Positions 26,813 to 51,043 of a stretch of DNA of 64,000 bases are shown piece after piece; positions within the stretch are counted from its first letter, which is position 1; every line of letters starts with the position of its first letter. The position numbers were made by a program, and so were the translations under genes. The notes under the pieces are model-generated. The model was not told the origin of the DNA. It did not search any database and worked only from the letters and a program-made list of their open reading frames with translations. Source of the stretch: an uncultured Planctomycetia bacterium (GTDB lineage Bacteria > Omnitrophota > Gorgyraeia > Taenaricolales > CAZCCH01); the NCBI GenBank assembly GCA_964497315.1, contig CAZCCH010000003.1:23346-87345 (forward strand), in the 5' to 3' direction.

Positions 26813-26862
26813 TATGGTGGATAGAAAAAATTTAACTAACAATATGTTGCATGGAGGCACAA

Positions 26863-29800
26863 ATGGCAAGATTGGAGACAAAGCTTAACCTTACAGAGAA
26901 TGCCAAGACAGTCCTGGCAAAGCGTTACCTTAAAAAAGATGAAACAGGCGAACCTATTGAAAAACCAGAAGATATGTTTTGCCGTGTGGCAAATAATATA
27001 GCACAGGCAGACCGCTCTTATAATAAAGATTTAGATATTTCAAAAACTAAAGACAATTTTTATAGCATAATGACAAATGGAGAATTCTTACCAAATTCAC
27101 CAACTTTAATGAATGCAGGAAGAGAGTTGCAGATGTTGAGCGCCTGTTTTGTATTAAAGATTGATGATACAATGGAGGATATTTTCGAAACGCTCAAGCA
27201 TACTTCTATGATCCATAAAGCTGGAGGAGGTACTGGTTTTTCATTTTCTCGCCTTAGGTCAAAGGGAAGCATGGTTAAGTCTACAACAGGTATTGCAAGC
27301 GGACCCATTTCATTTTTGAAAGTTTTTGATTCAGCGACGGAAGCTGTAAAACAGGGCGGGGTTCGGAGAGGTGCTTCGATGGGGATTTTGCGGGTTGATC
27401 ACCCGGATATTTTGGAATTCATTAAATGCAAGGAAGACGACAAATCGATTACTAACTTTAACATTTCTGTTACAGTAACAGAAGATTTTATGCTGAAGGT
27501 AAAGCTTGGCCAGGATTATGATTTGATAGATCCGCATAATGGTGAAGTAGTGGGCAAATTGAACGCAAAAGAAGTCTTTGATCTTATTGTAAAACAGGCC
27601 CATAAAAACGGTGAGCCTGGAATAATATTTATTGATGAAATGAATAAATTTAATCCAACTCCGGAGATTGGAACATATGAGAGCACAAATCCTTGTATTA
27701 CTGGCGATTCATTAATACCTACTAATGAAGGGCTTTTACCAATTAAAAGATTGGCTTCAAGTGAATTTAATGGCAGCTTAAGAATTCTTGCCGATAATCG
27801 CTTTTTTGATCAAAGGGAGAATAACATAGAAAAACTTCTTTTGCCTAATAGAATATTTAGCACTGGCATTAGACCAACCTTATATCTTAAGACTAAAGCT
27901 GGCTATGAAATTAAACTTACAGCTAACCATCCCGTTTTGACTAATAGAGGTTGGATAAAAGCTGGAAATTTAGTCGTTGGAGAAGATAAAGTATTTATCC
28001 AGGATGCAAAAGGCGGATTTTCTACGAAAAGAACTCTGCCTTTTAAAGTTCAAAAACAATATAAGGGTAAAAATGGAAGAGCGTATAAGATGCCTTTACC
28101 GACAAAGTGGTCGGAAGAATTAGGTATTCTCATGGGTTGGCTTTTAGGCGATGGAAACCTGCATGGCAAGCAAGAAAGTATTTTTCTTTATTTTGGAAAA
28201 GATGATAAATTTGCACTTAGTGAAATCAGACATATATTAAAAAAGTTTACAAGCAATGAAGGAAGCCTAAGCAAAAGACCATGGGAATATCAGATATCCA
28301 TTTGCGGTAAATTACTTTTTGAATTTTTTAGAAGCTTAGGATTCCAGCGAGTCAGGGCTCATGAGAAATCAGTACCATCTAGTATTTTTATTGCGCCGAA
28401 AGATGTCATTAAAGGGTTTCTAAAGGGACTTTTTAGCTCTGACGGTACTGTAAATTATATGAAGGACAAAAACGCATATGTACGCTTAACATCCGCATCT
28501 CTCAAGCTATTGAAAGAGGTTCAATTGCTGTTGCTTAATTTTGGTGTTTTTTCTACGATATACGAGGAGCGCAGACCAGCTCAAAAAAGACTTCTACCAT
28601 TTCACGATAAGAATAATACACACAAGATGTATAACACAAGGGCTTATCATGAGCTGAATATCTCCAGAAAAGATGTAATAGTTTTTCTAAGAGAAATAGG
28701 GCTCATGAAGAATAAGCATACAAAAAAATTAGAGGAGATAATAAAAAAGAACAATCGAAAATTGGGTTATTATAAAAGAAGAAAAGAAGATTTAGTGGTT
28801 AAATTGGAACCAGCAGGCAGAGAAGAAGTTTTTGATCTTACCGAACCAGCCACCCATTCCTTTATCGCAAACGGATGTGTTATTCACAATTGTGGTGAAC
28901 AGATCCTCTTACCCTATGAATCGTGTAATTTAGGAAGTATAAATCTTTCTAAAATGCTCGTCGATAAAAACGGAAAGACGGAAATTGATTGGGATAAGCT
29001 TGTCAGGACTACGCGTAGCGCTGTGCATTTTTTAGATAACGTAATTGATATGAATAAATACCCTTTAAAAGAGATAGAAGACATGACAAAGGGTAACAGA
29101 AAAATAGGCCTTGGTATTATGGGATGGGCTGATATGTTAGTACAACTTGGGATTCCCTATAATTCTAATGAAGCAGTGACTTTAGCAGAAGAGGTCATGA
29201 GGTTTATATCTGATGAGGCAAAGAAGAAATCTTTAGAATTAGCCAAAGAAAAGAAAGAATTCCCGAATTTTAAAGAAAGTGTTTTTGCTAATGGAGAAAA
29301 GGTTAGGAATGCAACCCTTACAACAATTGCACCAACAGGAACGCTTTCTATAATTGCCGGTTGCTCAAGCGGTATAGAACCTTTGTTTGCAATTTGTTAT
29401 TACAGGAAGGTTTTAGATGGTGCAAAATTAATAGAGGTAAATCCTTACTTTGAAAAAATAGCAAAAGAAAAAGGTTTTTACAGCGAAAAGCTTATGAAGA
29501 AAATCTCACAGCAGTCTTCCATTCAAAACATGGAAGAAATCCCCGAAGATGTACGAAAGGTTTTTGTAACATCACATGACATAACACCTGTTTGGCATAT
29601 AAAGATGCAGGCAGCATTTCAAAAATATACCGACAATGCAGTTAGTAAGACCGTAAATTTTCCATATGATGCTACCCCTGATGATGTAGAAGAGGTATAT
29701 ATGCTTGCGCACAGATTAGGGTGTAAGGGTGTTACCATATATAGAGATGGAAGTAGGGATGAGCAGGTTTTAAATATTGATAGGGGTGCACGTACCACAG

Positions 29801-30459
29801 AGACACAAGTAGAAGTAAAAGATGGCAGCAAAGAGGCCATGGAAAAACAAGAAAGAGAAGAAAAGCTAGATGAGGCCATTGAACAAGTTCAACCAGCTAA
29901 TGAAAAAATTGCACCCAGACCAAGGCCTAAGGTAGTTCAAGGTACAACGACTAAAGTGCAAACAGGTTGCGGGAATTTATATGTAACTATAAATGTTGAT
30001 GGAGAAGGGCGTCCTTTCGAGGTATTTACTCAGATGGGAAAGGCGGGTGGTTGTGCTGCAAGTCAACTTGAGGCCCTTGGAAGACTTGTTTCATTGGCAT
30101 TGCGTAGCGGACAGGATATAAAGTCTGTTATTGAACAACTCGAAGGTATTAGATGTCCTTCACCTTCATGGGAGAAGACAGGCAGGATATTTTCCTGTGC
30201 GGATGCTATTGGAAAGGTCATAGAAAGAAGATTATTAGGCGAAGACAGAAAAGACAAGCCTAGTTTCGAAAGCCCTATGGCGCATACAAGCGGGACCATA
30301 GATATTAAAGAGGATGCAAAAGAGAGTTCGCAATCAAAAAAATCATCCGCCACAAAATTAAGAAACATCGTTGGGGTTTGCCCTGATTGTGGTGGGGCAT
30401 TAGTTCATGAAGAAGGCTGCATGAAGTGTTATGCATGTGGATACACTAAGTGTGGATGA
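26863..30459 (+). CDS. nrdJ: Adenosylcobalamin-dependent (class II) ribonucleotide reductase NrdJ, interrupted by an intein
   Basis: The extein reads ...RYLKKDETGEPIEKPEDMFCRVA... and ...TNP|CGEQILLPYESCNLGSINL..., and a C-terminal Zn-ribbon CPDCGG...CMKCYACG is present. GGAGG lies 5 nt before the ATG at 26863, and an alternative in-frame ATG lies at 26851. Confidence 0.8.
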   Translation: MARLETKLNLTENAKTVLAKRYLKKDETGEPIEKPEDMFCRVANNIAQADRSYNKDLDISKTKDNFYSIMTNGEFLPNSPTLMNAGRELQMLSACFVLKIDDTMEDIFETLKHTSMIHKAGGGTGFSFSRLRSKGSMVKSTTGIASGPISFLKVFDSATEAVKQGGVRRGASMGILRVDHPDILEFIKCKEDDKSITNFNISVTVTEDFMLKVKLGQDYDLIDPHNGEVVGKLNAKEVFDLIVKQAHKNGEPGIIFIDEMNKFNPTPEIGTYESTNPCITGDSLIPTNEGLLPIKRLASSEFNGSLRILADNRFFDQRENNIEKLLLPNRIFSTGIRPTLYLKTKAGYEIKLTANHPVLTNRGWIKAGNLVVGEDKVFIQDAKGGFSTKRTLPFKVQKQYKGKNGRAYKMPLPTKWSEELGILMGWLLGDGNLHGKQESIFLYFGKDDKFALSEIRHILKKFTSNEGSLSKRPWEYQISICGKLLFEFFRSLGFQRVRAHEKSVPSSIFIAPKDVIKGFLKGLFSSDGTVNYMKDKNAYVRLTSASLKLLKEVQLLLLNFGVFSTIYEERRPAQKRLLPFHDKNNTHKMYNTRAYHELNISRKDVIVFLREIGLMKNKHTKKLEEIIKKNNRKLGYYKRRKEDLVVKLEPAGREEVFDLTEPATHSFIANGCVIHNCGEQILLPYESCNLGSINLSKMLVDKNGKTEIDWDKLVRTTRSAVHFLDNVIDMNKYPLKEIEDMTKGNRKIGLGIMGWADMLVQLGIPYNSNEAVTLAEEVMRFISDEAKKKSLELAKEKKEFPNFKESVFANGEKVRNATLTTIAPTGTLSIIAGCSSGIEPLFAICYYRKVLDGAKLIEVNPYFEKIAKEKGFYSEKLMKKISQQSSIQNMEEIPEDVRKVFVTSHDITPVWHIKMQAAFQKYTDNAVSKTVNFPYDATPDDVEEVYMLAHRLGCKGVTIYRDGSRDEQVLNIDRGARTTETQVEVKDGSKEAMEKQEREEKLDEAIEQVQPANEKIAPRPRPKVVQGTTTKVQTGCGNLYVTINVDGEGRPFEVFTQMGKAGGCAASQLEALGRLVSLALRSGQDIKSVIEQLEGIRCPSPSWEKTGRIFSCADAIGKVIERRLLGEDRKDKPSFESPMAHTSGTIDIKEDAKESSQSKKSSATKLRNIVGVCPDCGGALVHEEGCMKCYACGYTKCG
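27694..28890 (+). mobile_element. Intein (399 aa) with a LAGLIDADG homing-endonuclease domain in nrdJ
   Basis: It starts with Cys (TNP|CITGDSLIPTNEG) and ends ...ANGCVIHN|CGEQ (HN plus a +1 Cys). LAGLIDADG blocks GWLLGDGNL and KGFLKGLFSSDGTV are present. The insert sits inside the conserved NPCGEQ active-site motif. Confidence 0.8.
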
Positions 30460-49498: not shown

Positions 49499-51043
49499 AT
49501 GGATAAGAAGAAAATAGAAGAAGCAGTAAAACAAATACTTAAGGCAATCGGAGATGACCCCAAAAGAGAAGGTCTTAAAGCCACACCAAAACGCGTTGCT
49601 GAAATGTATGAGGAGATTTTTAGTGGCATAAAACAAGACCCTAAAAAAGAATTGGAGGTTATATTTGAGCATGAGCACGATGAGGTAATCCTTTTAAAGG
49701 GCATACCTTTGTATTCTATATGTGAGCACCACCTCGTTCCCTTTATAGGTAAAGCGCATGTAGCATATATACCAGAGGGTAATAGGGTAACCGGTTTAAG
49801 TAAATTAGCAAGGGTTGTAGATATTTTATCAAAAAAGCCGCAGGTCCAGGAGAGATTGACGACGCAGATTGCAGAGATAATTATGAAAAAATTAAAACCA
49901 AAGGGCGTTTTGGTGGTATTAGAAGCAGAACACCTTTGTTACGATAAAAAAACGGAAATTTTGACAGAAGCTGGATGGAAATTTTTTAAAAAGCTAGAAA
50001 AAAATGATAAAGTAGCTCAGGTAGATATGCCTACTAGAGAGTTATCTTTTGTTAAGCCCAAAAAAATTATTTCATATAACTATAGTGGTGAAATGGTAAA
50101 TGTGAATAGCTTATCCGTAAATCTTTTAGTTACGCCAGACCACAGATTTTGCTATTGTTCAGATTGGAGTTTTTACAATCACCAAGAACCTAACTTCAAG
50201 ATAGGAGTCGCCAGAGAATTGGTAAAAAAGTACGTAGTAATTCCCAGGGCATGCAACTGGGGCGGAAAAAGTTGTGGTAGTATAAAAATCGGAAGGTATA
50301 ACATCGCTTTTAAAAAATTCGCCCAACTATTTGGCATATGGGTTGGCGAGGGCTGTGTTACACACGCTGGAAAAAGGAAATTTTTTGTTGTATCGCAGAG
50401 CCCTAATTCACCACATTTTAAAAATATTAATAGTTTATTTGATAGTCTTAGAATAAAATACATAAAAGCCAAAAGCGGAAAAACGATACAATTTCGTATA
50501 GAAAGTAACGATTTTTATAATTATTTTAAACAGTTTGGCAAGTCAGATAAAAAATTCGTCCCGAAAATAATTAAAAATTCATCACCCCATTATTTAAAAA
50601 TATTTTTAGATTGGTATGTAAAAGGCGATGGTCATATAAAGAAAAATGGAGCTTATCATTTTGTATCTAAATCAGAAAAATTAATAGATGACCTTCAGGA
50701 GATATGTATTAAATTAGGCATGGGTTGTACAAAACAAAATAATAAAAACCATTACAGAATGGAGACCCACAAGGCAAAAAGTGGAATGGATAAGTGGTAT
50801 TCTAGATTAATACCAGAAAATTTTTCTATAACGCATTATAAAGGAAAGATATATTGCGTTTCGGTTCCCAAGGGACTAATTTTAGTACGCAGGATGGGAC
50901 GGGTTGCCGTTTGCGGCAACTGCATGTCTATGAGGGGAGTAAAAAAACCAGGGATTTTAACTGTAACAAGTGCGGTGCGAGGAATTTTTAGGGAAAATGA
51001 AAAAACTAGGGCAGAGGCCCTTTCTTTAATCGGACAAAGATGA
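49499..51043 (+). CDS. folE: GTP cyclohydrolase I (FolE) interrupted by an intein
   Basis: The extein reads ...ICEHHLVPF...VVLEAEHL|(intein)|[23 protein letters not shown]... An RBS (aaggag) lies 5 nt upstream of the ATG at 49499. The track ORF starts at the GTG at 49493. Confidence 0.8.
49937..50920 (+). mobile_element. Intein (328 aa) with a LAGLIDADG homing-endonuclease domain in folE. The C-terminal residues are GN rather than the usual HN.
   Basis: It starts with Cys (EAEHL|[14 protein letters not shown]) and ends ...GRVAVCGN|CMSMRGV. LAGLIDADG-like blocks [10 protein letters not shown] and [11 protein letters not shown] are present. It sits inside the conserved EAxHxCMxMRGV active-site motif. 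Confidence 0.75.

Follow-up and report, generated by a model that had tools for sequence, protein, structure and literature searches.

The DNA examined here, called the window below, is a stretch of 64,000 nucleotides on contig CAZCCH010000003.1 (assembly GCA_964497315.1), which is deposited as an uncultured Planctomycetia bacterium and placed by GTDB in the Omnitrophota. It carries a folE gene, encoding GTP cyclohydrolase I (FolE), that is interrupted by an in-frame intein. This enzyme catalyses the first step of folate and queuosine precursor synthesis. The sequence aaaggag precedes the ATG of the precursor gene, and the features of the locus are listed in Table 1, where a slash in a motif, as in the text, marks a splice junction.

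Table 1. Features of the interrupted folE gene, and of a second intein, in the window (aa, amino acids).
Feature	Positions	Strand	Description and basis
folE precursor gene	49499..51043	+	514 aa plus stop: N-extein, intein, C-extein; open reading frame list and sequence
N-extein, FolE residues 1-146	49499..49936	+	ends in ..EAEHL; contains CEHH (Cys75, His78); aligns with PF01227 profile positions 1-145
Intein, Cys1 to Asn328	49937..50920	+	328 aa, 984 nucleotides, in frame; sequence, AlphaFold2 and Foldseek
N-terminal splicing (HINT) region, aa 1-112	49937..50272	+	block A (Cys1) and block B; region kept in mini-intein alleles
Block B, aa 60-73	50114-50155	+	T66-P-D-H69-R70, then Phe71
Nested LAGLIDADG homing endonuclease domain, about aa 113-285	50273..50791	+	limits approximate; PF14528; Foldseek match to I-DmoI; absent from mini-inteins
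LAGLIDADG motif 1, aa 131-140	50327-50356	+	predicted catalytic Glu138
LAGLIDADG motif 2, aa 223-233	50603-50635	+	predicted catalytic Asp231
C-terminal splicing region, aa 286-328	50792..50920	+	blocks F and G
Block F, aa 304-319	50846-50893	+	Cys307 = F:4; no His
Block G, RVAVCGN, aa 322-328	50900-50920	+	Cys326 = G:5, Gly327 = G:6, Asn328 = G:7
C-extein, 40 aa plus stop	50921..51043	+	begins with Cys+1 of CMSMRGV; contiguous with the N-extein against 4uqf
Second intein, 399 aa, LAGLIDADG	27694..28890	+	in a 1202-aa class II (B12-dependent) ribonucleotide reductase-like open reading frame, 26851..30459

The family profile PF01227 matched the precursor in two stretches flanking the insert (3.7e-73, 245 bits, cut-off 27), and TIGR00063 also matched it in two stretches (3.3e-68, 228.8 bits, cut-off 181.6). 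When the insert was deleted from the translation, a FolE of 186 amino acids remained, which aligned without a gap across the junction with the solved structure 4uqf (1.6e-74). At the junction the spliced extein reads eaehlcmsmrgv and the structure eaehmcmtirgv, an agreement far beyond chance. The active-site motifs Cys75-E-H-His78 and His145-Leu-Cys147 are retained in the spliced sequence. From the correspondence of the motifs (CEHH .. H-x-C), we take Cys+1 to correspond to Cys181, a zinc ligand in E. coli FolE, and the His that stands two positions before Cys+1 presumably corresponds to His179. As the insert parts the catalytic His from the zinc-ligand Cys, the precursor should be inactive. 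A sequence-only reading of the window had proposed a 328-residue insert that starts with Cys and splits the FolE motif EAEHL/CMSMRGV; these boundaries are exact to the base, with the codons TGT (Cys1) at 49937-49939, AAC (Asn328) at 50918-50920 and TGC (Cys+1) at 50921-50923, and both the flanking profile matches and the extein alignment, which that reading had suggested as a check, agree with it.

In its junction context (..VLEAEHL/intein...GRVAVCGN/CMSMRGV..), the insert has the nucleophile signature of a class 1 intein, namely Cys1, a block B Thr-x-x-His (T66-x-x-H69), a terminal Asn328 and Cys+1. Residue 1 is Cys and not the Ala of class 2 (KlbA-type) inteins. Three residues depart from the usual pattern: the penultimate position (G:6) is Gly327 and not His, position F:4 holds Cys307 and not the common assisting Asp, and Leu stands at the block F His position (F:13). 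The Gly-Asn end had been pointed out from the letters alone, but the Cys at F:4 and the missing block F His had not.

The fold of the insert was predicted by AlphaFold2 from 66 homologues with a pLDDT (predicted local distance difference test) of 97.7 and a pTM (predicted template modelling score) of 0.94. The best match of this model among PDB structures in Foldseek was the TliVMA intein 7qsu (E 6e-17, TMq 0.72), followed by PhoVMA, PI-SceI, PI-PfuI and PI-PkoII, while I-DmoI matched the central domain over about 168 columns. The archaeal VMA inteins TliVMA and PhoVMA (7qsu, 7qss, 7qst), PI-SceI and PI-PfuI are thus the closest solved folds, with a HINT domain and a nested LAGLIDADG endonuclease (E 6e-17 to 1e-12, TMq 0.62-0.72), although they are only 10-16% identical to the FolE intein and sit in other hosts. 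Two LAGLIDADG motifs were located where LAGLIDADG-like blocks had been proposed, and PF14528 (LAGLIDADG_3) matched the insert above its gathering score (4e-07). In a sequence search of solved structures, the AceL NrdHF intein 6zgq matched the N-terminal part weakly (E 0.011 with the single sequence, 7e-06 with a profile); no intein match to blocks F and G was obtained in this search with either query. Both repeats of an archaeal TATA-box-binding protein (PDB 2z8u) matched the block F/G hairpin of the mini-intein profile at E 0.02, which is weak and was taken as chance. On the strength of the model, the folE insert between EAEHL and CMSMRGV is an intein with a HINT and LAGLIDADG fold. The absence of a Hint fold had been named as the finding that would speak against an intein; the confident model has this fold, and the intein reading stands.

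To place this copy among its relatives, a collection of 5.8 billion proteins was searched, which gave 127 matches. About 110 of them are FolE proteins interrupted at exactly the same position, and the precursor of the window (P0001) occurs as an identical protein on 11 public contigs. Public records name such proteins plainly as GTP cyclohydrolase I FolE despite a length about 2.8 times the normal one. Ninety-one complete FolE inteins could be extracted, 73 of them full-length (about 306-350 aa) and 18 mini-inteins (157-180 aa) from which the endonuclease region is missing. The residues expected to take part in splicing are strongly conserved: C1, H69, V317-R318-R319, G327 and N328 are kept in all 91 inteins, R70 and C307 (F:4) in 90, and T66 in 89. 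The G:5 position is more variable (Ser in 71, Cys in 16, Ala in 3), and the block F His position is occupied by Ala or Leu and never by His. Among the 73 full-length inteins, the acidic endonuclease residues E138 and D231 are kept in 71 and 73, respectively.

At least 28 FolE-intein loci were found in GTDB species representatives, in Omnitrophota, Margulisiibacteriota, Anaerolineae, Ktedonobacteria/Chloroflexia, Rubrobacter and Hydrogenothermaceae/Persephonella, and the cultured Rubrobacter taiwanensis is among the carriers. Six loci (L019, L021-L024, L033) from Hydrogenothermaceae/Persephonella/Aquificota metagenome-assembled genomes have Ser at F:4 (IYSVTVPEGY..VRRN.KIAISGN/C) and SPDH(K/R) in block B. 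These inteins offer natural evidence that the lineage can do without Cys at F:4. The suggestion that folE is an uncommon intein host is borne out in part: no report was found in the literature, but about 110 protein clusters and at least 28 GTDB loci carry the element. As a separate observation, one relative (P0019, UCH72099.1) lies on a 1.07-Mb contig of a metagenome-assembled genome labelled Thermoplasmatales archaeon, and its intein and extein are 65% and 74% identical to those of the window, whose copy otherwise groups with Omnitrophota bacteria. It may be that the whole gene was transferred between domains, or that the genome carries a wrong taxonomic label.

The distribution of the intein is sporadic, and intein-free alleles occur in close relatives. 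The 120 FolE homologues that scored best against the spliced extein, mostly from Omnitrophota and 76-86% identical to it (median 80%), are all about 185 aa long and intein-free, and the exteins of the intein-bearing FolEs are 65-79% identical within the close clade. In the window, folE has mnmE, a folC-like gene and purH upstream of it. Of the intein-free alleles, the closest (P0122, 86%) has the same purH-folC-mnmE-folE order and an empty site; around the junction, 20 residues and 49 of 60 nucleotides are identical to the window. The candidate homing target, taken from this empty allele, is GTCCTGGTAGTCCTTGAGGCAGAGCATCTT/TGCATGTCCATGAGGGGAGTAAAAAAACCC. A homing cycle predicts three states, namely empty sites, full-length copies whose endonuclease is intact, and mini-inteins lacking it, and all three are seen. 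The G+C content of the intein (about 0.26-0.40 in 300-nucleotide windows) is no different from that of its neighbourhood and gives no compositional sign of a recent arrival; recent foreign DNA, judged by composition, was rejected on this ground.

The same intein type was found well beyond FolE. Its hosts include NrdD (anaerobic ribonucleotide reductase), PurD, carbamoyltransferase, the family B DNA polymerase PolB, ThyX and phage genes, and further an NAD-dependent epimerase, a class III aminotransferase, a glutamate-synthase domain protein and a phosphodiesterase. The insertion sites differ from host to host, for example KGPN/TGGMG in PurD, KHRE/SWRPFAP in carbamoyltransferase and PLTG/SIGVVT in NrdD (among L025-L080, L085-L164 and P0242-P0386). 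The hallmarks of the lineage are a CY(D/S)xxTEILT start, TPxH, VY(C/D/S)VxVP, VRRNG and an (S/C)GN end. It was found at 209 loci of GTDB representatives and on 308 viral contigs of IMG/VR. When a library of 1.84 billion representatives was searched, 456 clusters matched at E<=1e-30; at E<=1e-10 the number rose to 5822, a tier that probably includes other LAGLIDADG proteins. Carriers include Omnitrophota, Chloroflexota, Aquificota, CPR (Candidate Phyla Radiation) bacteria, DPANN and Asgard archaea, haloarchaea and many viruses, as well as Desulfonema magnum. As many as 10 stretches matched in some host proteins, so that these probably carry several such inteins; more than one intein per host protein is frequent.

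Residues were counted across 146 distinct inteins of this lineage. Cys at A:1 is invariant (146), and the block B positions are mostly Thr at B:7 (138), His at B:10 (144) and Arg or Lys at B:11 (89 and 33). Position B:12 is Met in 73, Leu in 19, Phe in 15, Val in 14, Ile in 10 and Tyr in 4, with no Trp. F:4 is Cys in 120, Asp in 14 and Ser in 12. Positions 318 and 319 are Arg in 142 and 144 inteins, respectively. In block G, G:5 is Ser (76), Cys (63) or Thr (1), G:6 is Gly (144) and G:7 is Asn (145), while the +1 residue is Ser in 62, Cys in 48 and Thr in 36. A Gly-Asn end is thus what inteins of this very large and little-described lineage normally have. The view that the penultimate Gly marks a minority of inteins holds in the sense that about 5% of functional inteins have no penultimate His (PMC4031507), but within this lineage the Gly is close to fixed (91/91 in FolE, 144/146 overall).

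Taken together, the data indicate that the element is very probably a mobile, splicing-competent class 1 intein with a nested LAGLIDADG homing endonuclease, inserted in folE at EAEH-L/C-MSMRG. It is probably active. While the anatomy, the fold, the conservation and the sporadic distribution with an empty syntenic site are direct observations, splicing itself, the roles of the individual residues and the endonuclease activity are predicted as follows. An N-S acyl shift at Leu(-1)-Cys1 would be aided by Thr66 and His69 of block B, and the N-extein would then move to Cys+1 by transesterification. Cyclisation of Asn328 would release the intein, and an S-N shift would yield the 186-aa FolE, its EAEHLCMSMRGV site intact. 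The endonuclease of the free intein would cut intein-less folE at the same site, into which the element would be copied (homing).

The C-terminal step is where the FolE clade departs from the canonical scheme. As both the penultimate His and the block F His are missing from the clade, the two histidines usually available for Asn cyclisation are not at hand. We suggest that cyclisation is helped by conserved basic residues, either Arg70 (B:11) or the nearly invariant Arg318-Arg319 or both, and that Cys307 at F:4 may take the coordinating role held by Asp in canonical inteins. Arg B:11 has been proposed to assist Asn cyclisation in the Ssp DnaE intein, and Cys is the second most common residue at F:4 (PMC4031507). 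An altered C-terminal cleavage chemistry, as proposed in the sequence-only reading, is a reasonable expectation from these residues. Gly at this position is nevertheless fully compatible with efficient splicing, because a remote relative with the same residue splices (PMC5050341).

This relative is the Bethlehem RDF intein, which we consider, by analogy, the strongest functional precedent for the FolE intein. Kelley et al. (2016, PMC5050341) reported complete splicing with the native Gly and markedly slower splicing after the G316H change. The mycobacteriophage record gives it as C...TANHR...EVWCLRVPNGRFFIEDGGKIHLTGN/S, and over 292 columns hhalign finds it to be a remote homologue (probability 98.5%, E 3e-15). 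It shares with the FolE intein Cys1, a block B TxxH-Arg (TANHR), Cys F:4, the penultimate Gly, the terminal Asn, a nested LAGLIDADG-type endonuclease and a similar size (317 aa), and it likewise adjoins an absolutely conserved catalytic motif of its host. It differs in its host, a phage RDF (metallophosphoesterase), in having Ser at +1 and IED in place of Val-Arg-Arg, in not having the CYDxxTEILT start, and in its low identity (about 17-21%).

Other members of the lineage come from isolated phages, namely the inteins in ThyX of Corynebacterium phage P1201, the gp3 nucleotidyltransferase of Bixzunavirus, TerL of Gordonia GMA6, NrdB of Tenacibaculum PTm1 and the DNA polymerase of Escherichia phage JEP1. 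They join the lineage by full-length tblastn matches (E 1e-16 to 3e-9) and share the CY/F-x-x-D-T-E..LT start, the TPNH block B, the VYC-x-x-VP block F and (V/T/I)R(R/H); all of them end in Gly-Asn. In contrast to the FolE intein, they lie in other host genes and at other insertion sites, none in FolE, and the identity is 21-28%. The record of P1201 annotates the ThyX protein as 'contains hypothetical intein'. Further inteins without a penultimate His, from archaea (Chen, Benner and Perler 2000) and from Chlamydomonas ClpP (Wang and Liu 1997), are cited in PMC5050341. Like the Ssp DnaE intein, they have a residue other than His before the terminal Asn, and splicing in this group leans on the block F His or on Arg B:11. 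In these cases the block F His is thought to compensate, whereas the FolE clade does not have this His.

A second intein of the same genome lies in the ribonucleotide reductase-like frame (Table 1). It is also a large LAGLIDADG intein at a catalytic Cys (NP/CITGDSL...VFDLTEPATHSFIANGCVIHN/CGEQ). Unlike the FolE intein, it is fully canonical, with Cys1, TANH in block B, Asp at F:4 (VFDLTEP), a block F His (THSF) and a His-Asn end.

Several points weigh against a splicing-competent class 1 intein in folE. The splicing domain is barely seen by standard models: TIGR01445 (intein_Nterm) reached only E 0.034, below its cut-off, and no Pfam Hint family matched the insert at E<=1. The helper roles of Arg70 and Arg318/319 are proposed from conservation only, and the Bethlehem RDF intein has IED in place of Arg318-319, so the Arg pair is no general requirement. 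The splicing and endonuclease activities of FolE inteins are predictions. In addition, Cys F:4 is the hallmark nucleophile of class 3 inteins, some of which carry Cys1.

One alternative is a conditional class 1 intein, in which splicing is gated by redox or zinc and FolE maturation responds to the environment. Four Cys residues (Cys1, Cys307, Cys326 and Cys+1) are predicted to converge at the splice site of the window copy, and the last of these, by our assumption, binds zinc in the mature enzyme. Inteins gated by redox state through catalytic cysteines have been described (PMC6195587). However, only Cys1 and Cys307 are conserved throughout the lineage; G:5 is Ser in 71 of the 91 FolE inteins and +1 is Ser or Thr in 98 of the 146, so that a four-Cys site is not conserved. 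We consider such gating unlikely, although it is compatible with a class 1 intein. A broader version of the idea, in which the whole Gly-Asn/Cys-F:4 lineage (456 clusters at E<=1e-30) forms an unrecognised mechanistic subclass in which Cys F:4 acts as a second nucleophile or as a switch that responds to redox state or zinc, also seems rather improbable.

A class 3-like or hybrid mechanism, with Cys1 dispensable as in class 3 inteins that start with Ser or Cys, was also weighed. Class 3 inteins, such as the prototype MP-Be DnaB intein and Msm DnaBi1, are defined by Trp B:12, Cys F:4 and Thr G:5, usually with no nucleophile at residue 1 (PMC2807308), and pass through a branched intermediate at block F. 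They resemble the FolE intein in having a Cys at F:4, central between the splice junctions. This Cys is present in 90 of the 91 FolE inteins and in 120 of the 146 lineage inteins; in class 3 it is the obligate nucleophile, and Ser or Cys is the first residue of three inteins that have the Trp-Cys-Thr (WCT) triplet (PMC2807308). Of the WCT residues, however, two are missing: B:12 is Phe71 here and never Trp in the lineage, and G:5 is Cys326 here and Thr in only 1 of 146. The class 1 Thr B:7, which is generally absent from class 3 (PMC6195587), is retained in 138 of 146, and Cys1 is invariant. Moreover, F:4 is exchanged for Asp (14) and Ser (12) within one homologous lineage, including the Hydrogenothermaceae FolE inteins with Ser, and the related Bethlehem RDF intein was treated as class 1 by Kelley et al. 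(PMC5050341). With one of three WCT residues, Cys1 and Thr B:7 kept and F:4 interchangeable, class 3 was rejected as the leading explanation and is very unlikely.

Lastly, a degenerate, non-splicing insertion, that is, a folE pseudogene or a FolE with a permanent domain insertion, would fit the three missing assisting residues (Asp F:4, block F His, penultimate His) and the sub-threshold scores of the intein models, but it is extremely improbable and was rejected on residue conservation, fold and intact exteins: all residues chemically needed for splicing (C1, N328, C+1, T66, H69) and both endonuclease acidic residues are conserved, the exteins of intein-bearing alleles are intact, a relative with the same signature splices completely (the Bethlehem RDF intein, PMC5050341), and a permanent insertion, by holding the catalytic His and the zinc-ligand Cys apart, would most likely inactivate FolE, whereas genes of this arrangement have been kept in several phyla and also in the cultured Rubrobacter taiwanensis. 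The folE insert is thus best regarded as a class 1 intein of a standard element type, whose 'unusual' end is a lineage trait with experimental precedent.

At the 3' end of the gene, the folE stop TGA (51041-51043) overlaps the ATG (51040) of the next gene as ATGA. That gene encodes a 562-aa glycosyltransferase of the PMT-family/TPR type, and the overlap suggests translational coupling of folE with it.

In the literature searched, no report of FolE as an intein host was found, although FolE may stand in the supplementary tables of the Novikova 2016 survey; the search for metagenomic intein surveys gave nothing relevant. folE thus joins the list of intein hosts, and both host and site are new to the literature as searched. 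The position of the insertion, right at the zinc and catalytic site, agrees with the rule that conserved active sites which bind nucleotides are the targets of inteins. The Gly-Asn lineage is very large, widely spread and hardly studied biochemically, and many of its hosts are metabolic enzymes. If this lineage did form a mechanistic subclass with Cys F:4 as an additional nucleophile or a switch, the maturation of FolE, PurD, carbamoyltransferase and NrdD would be conditional in uncultivated bacteria, archaea and their viruses. The FolE clade would work without both of the usual histidines, and its mini-inteins, as short as 157 aa, may offer material for the study of Asn cyclisation catalysis or for protein-engineering tools.

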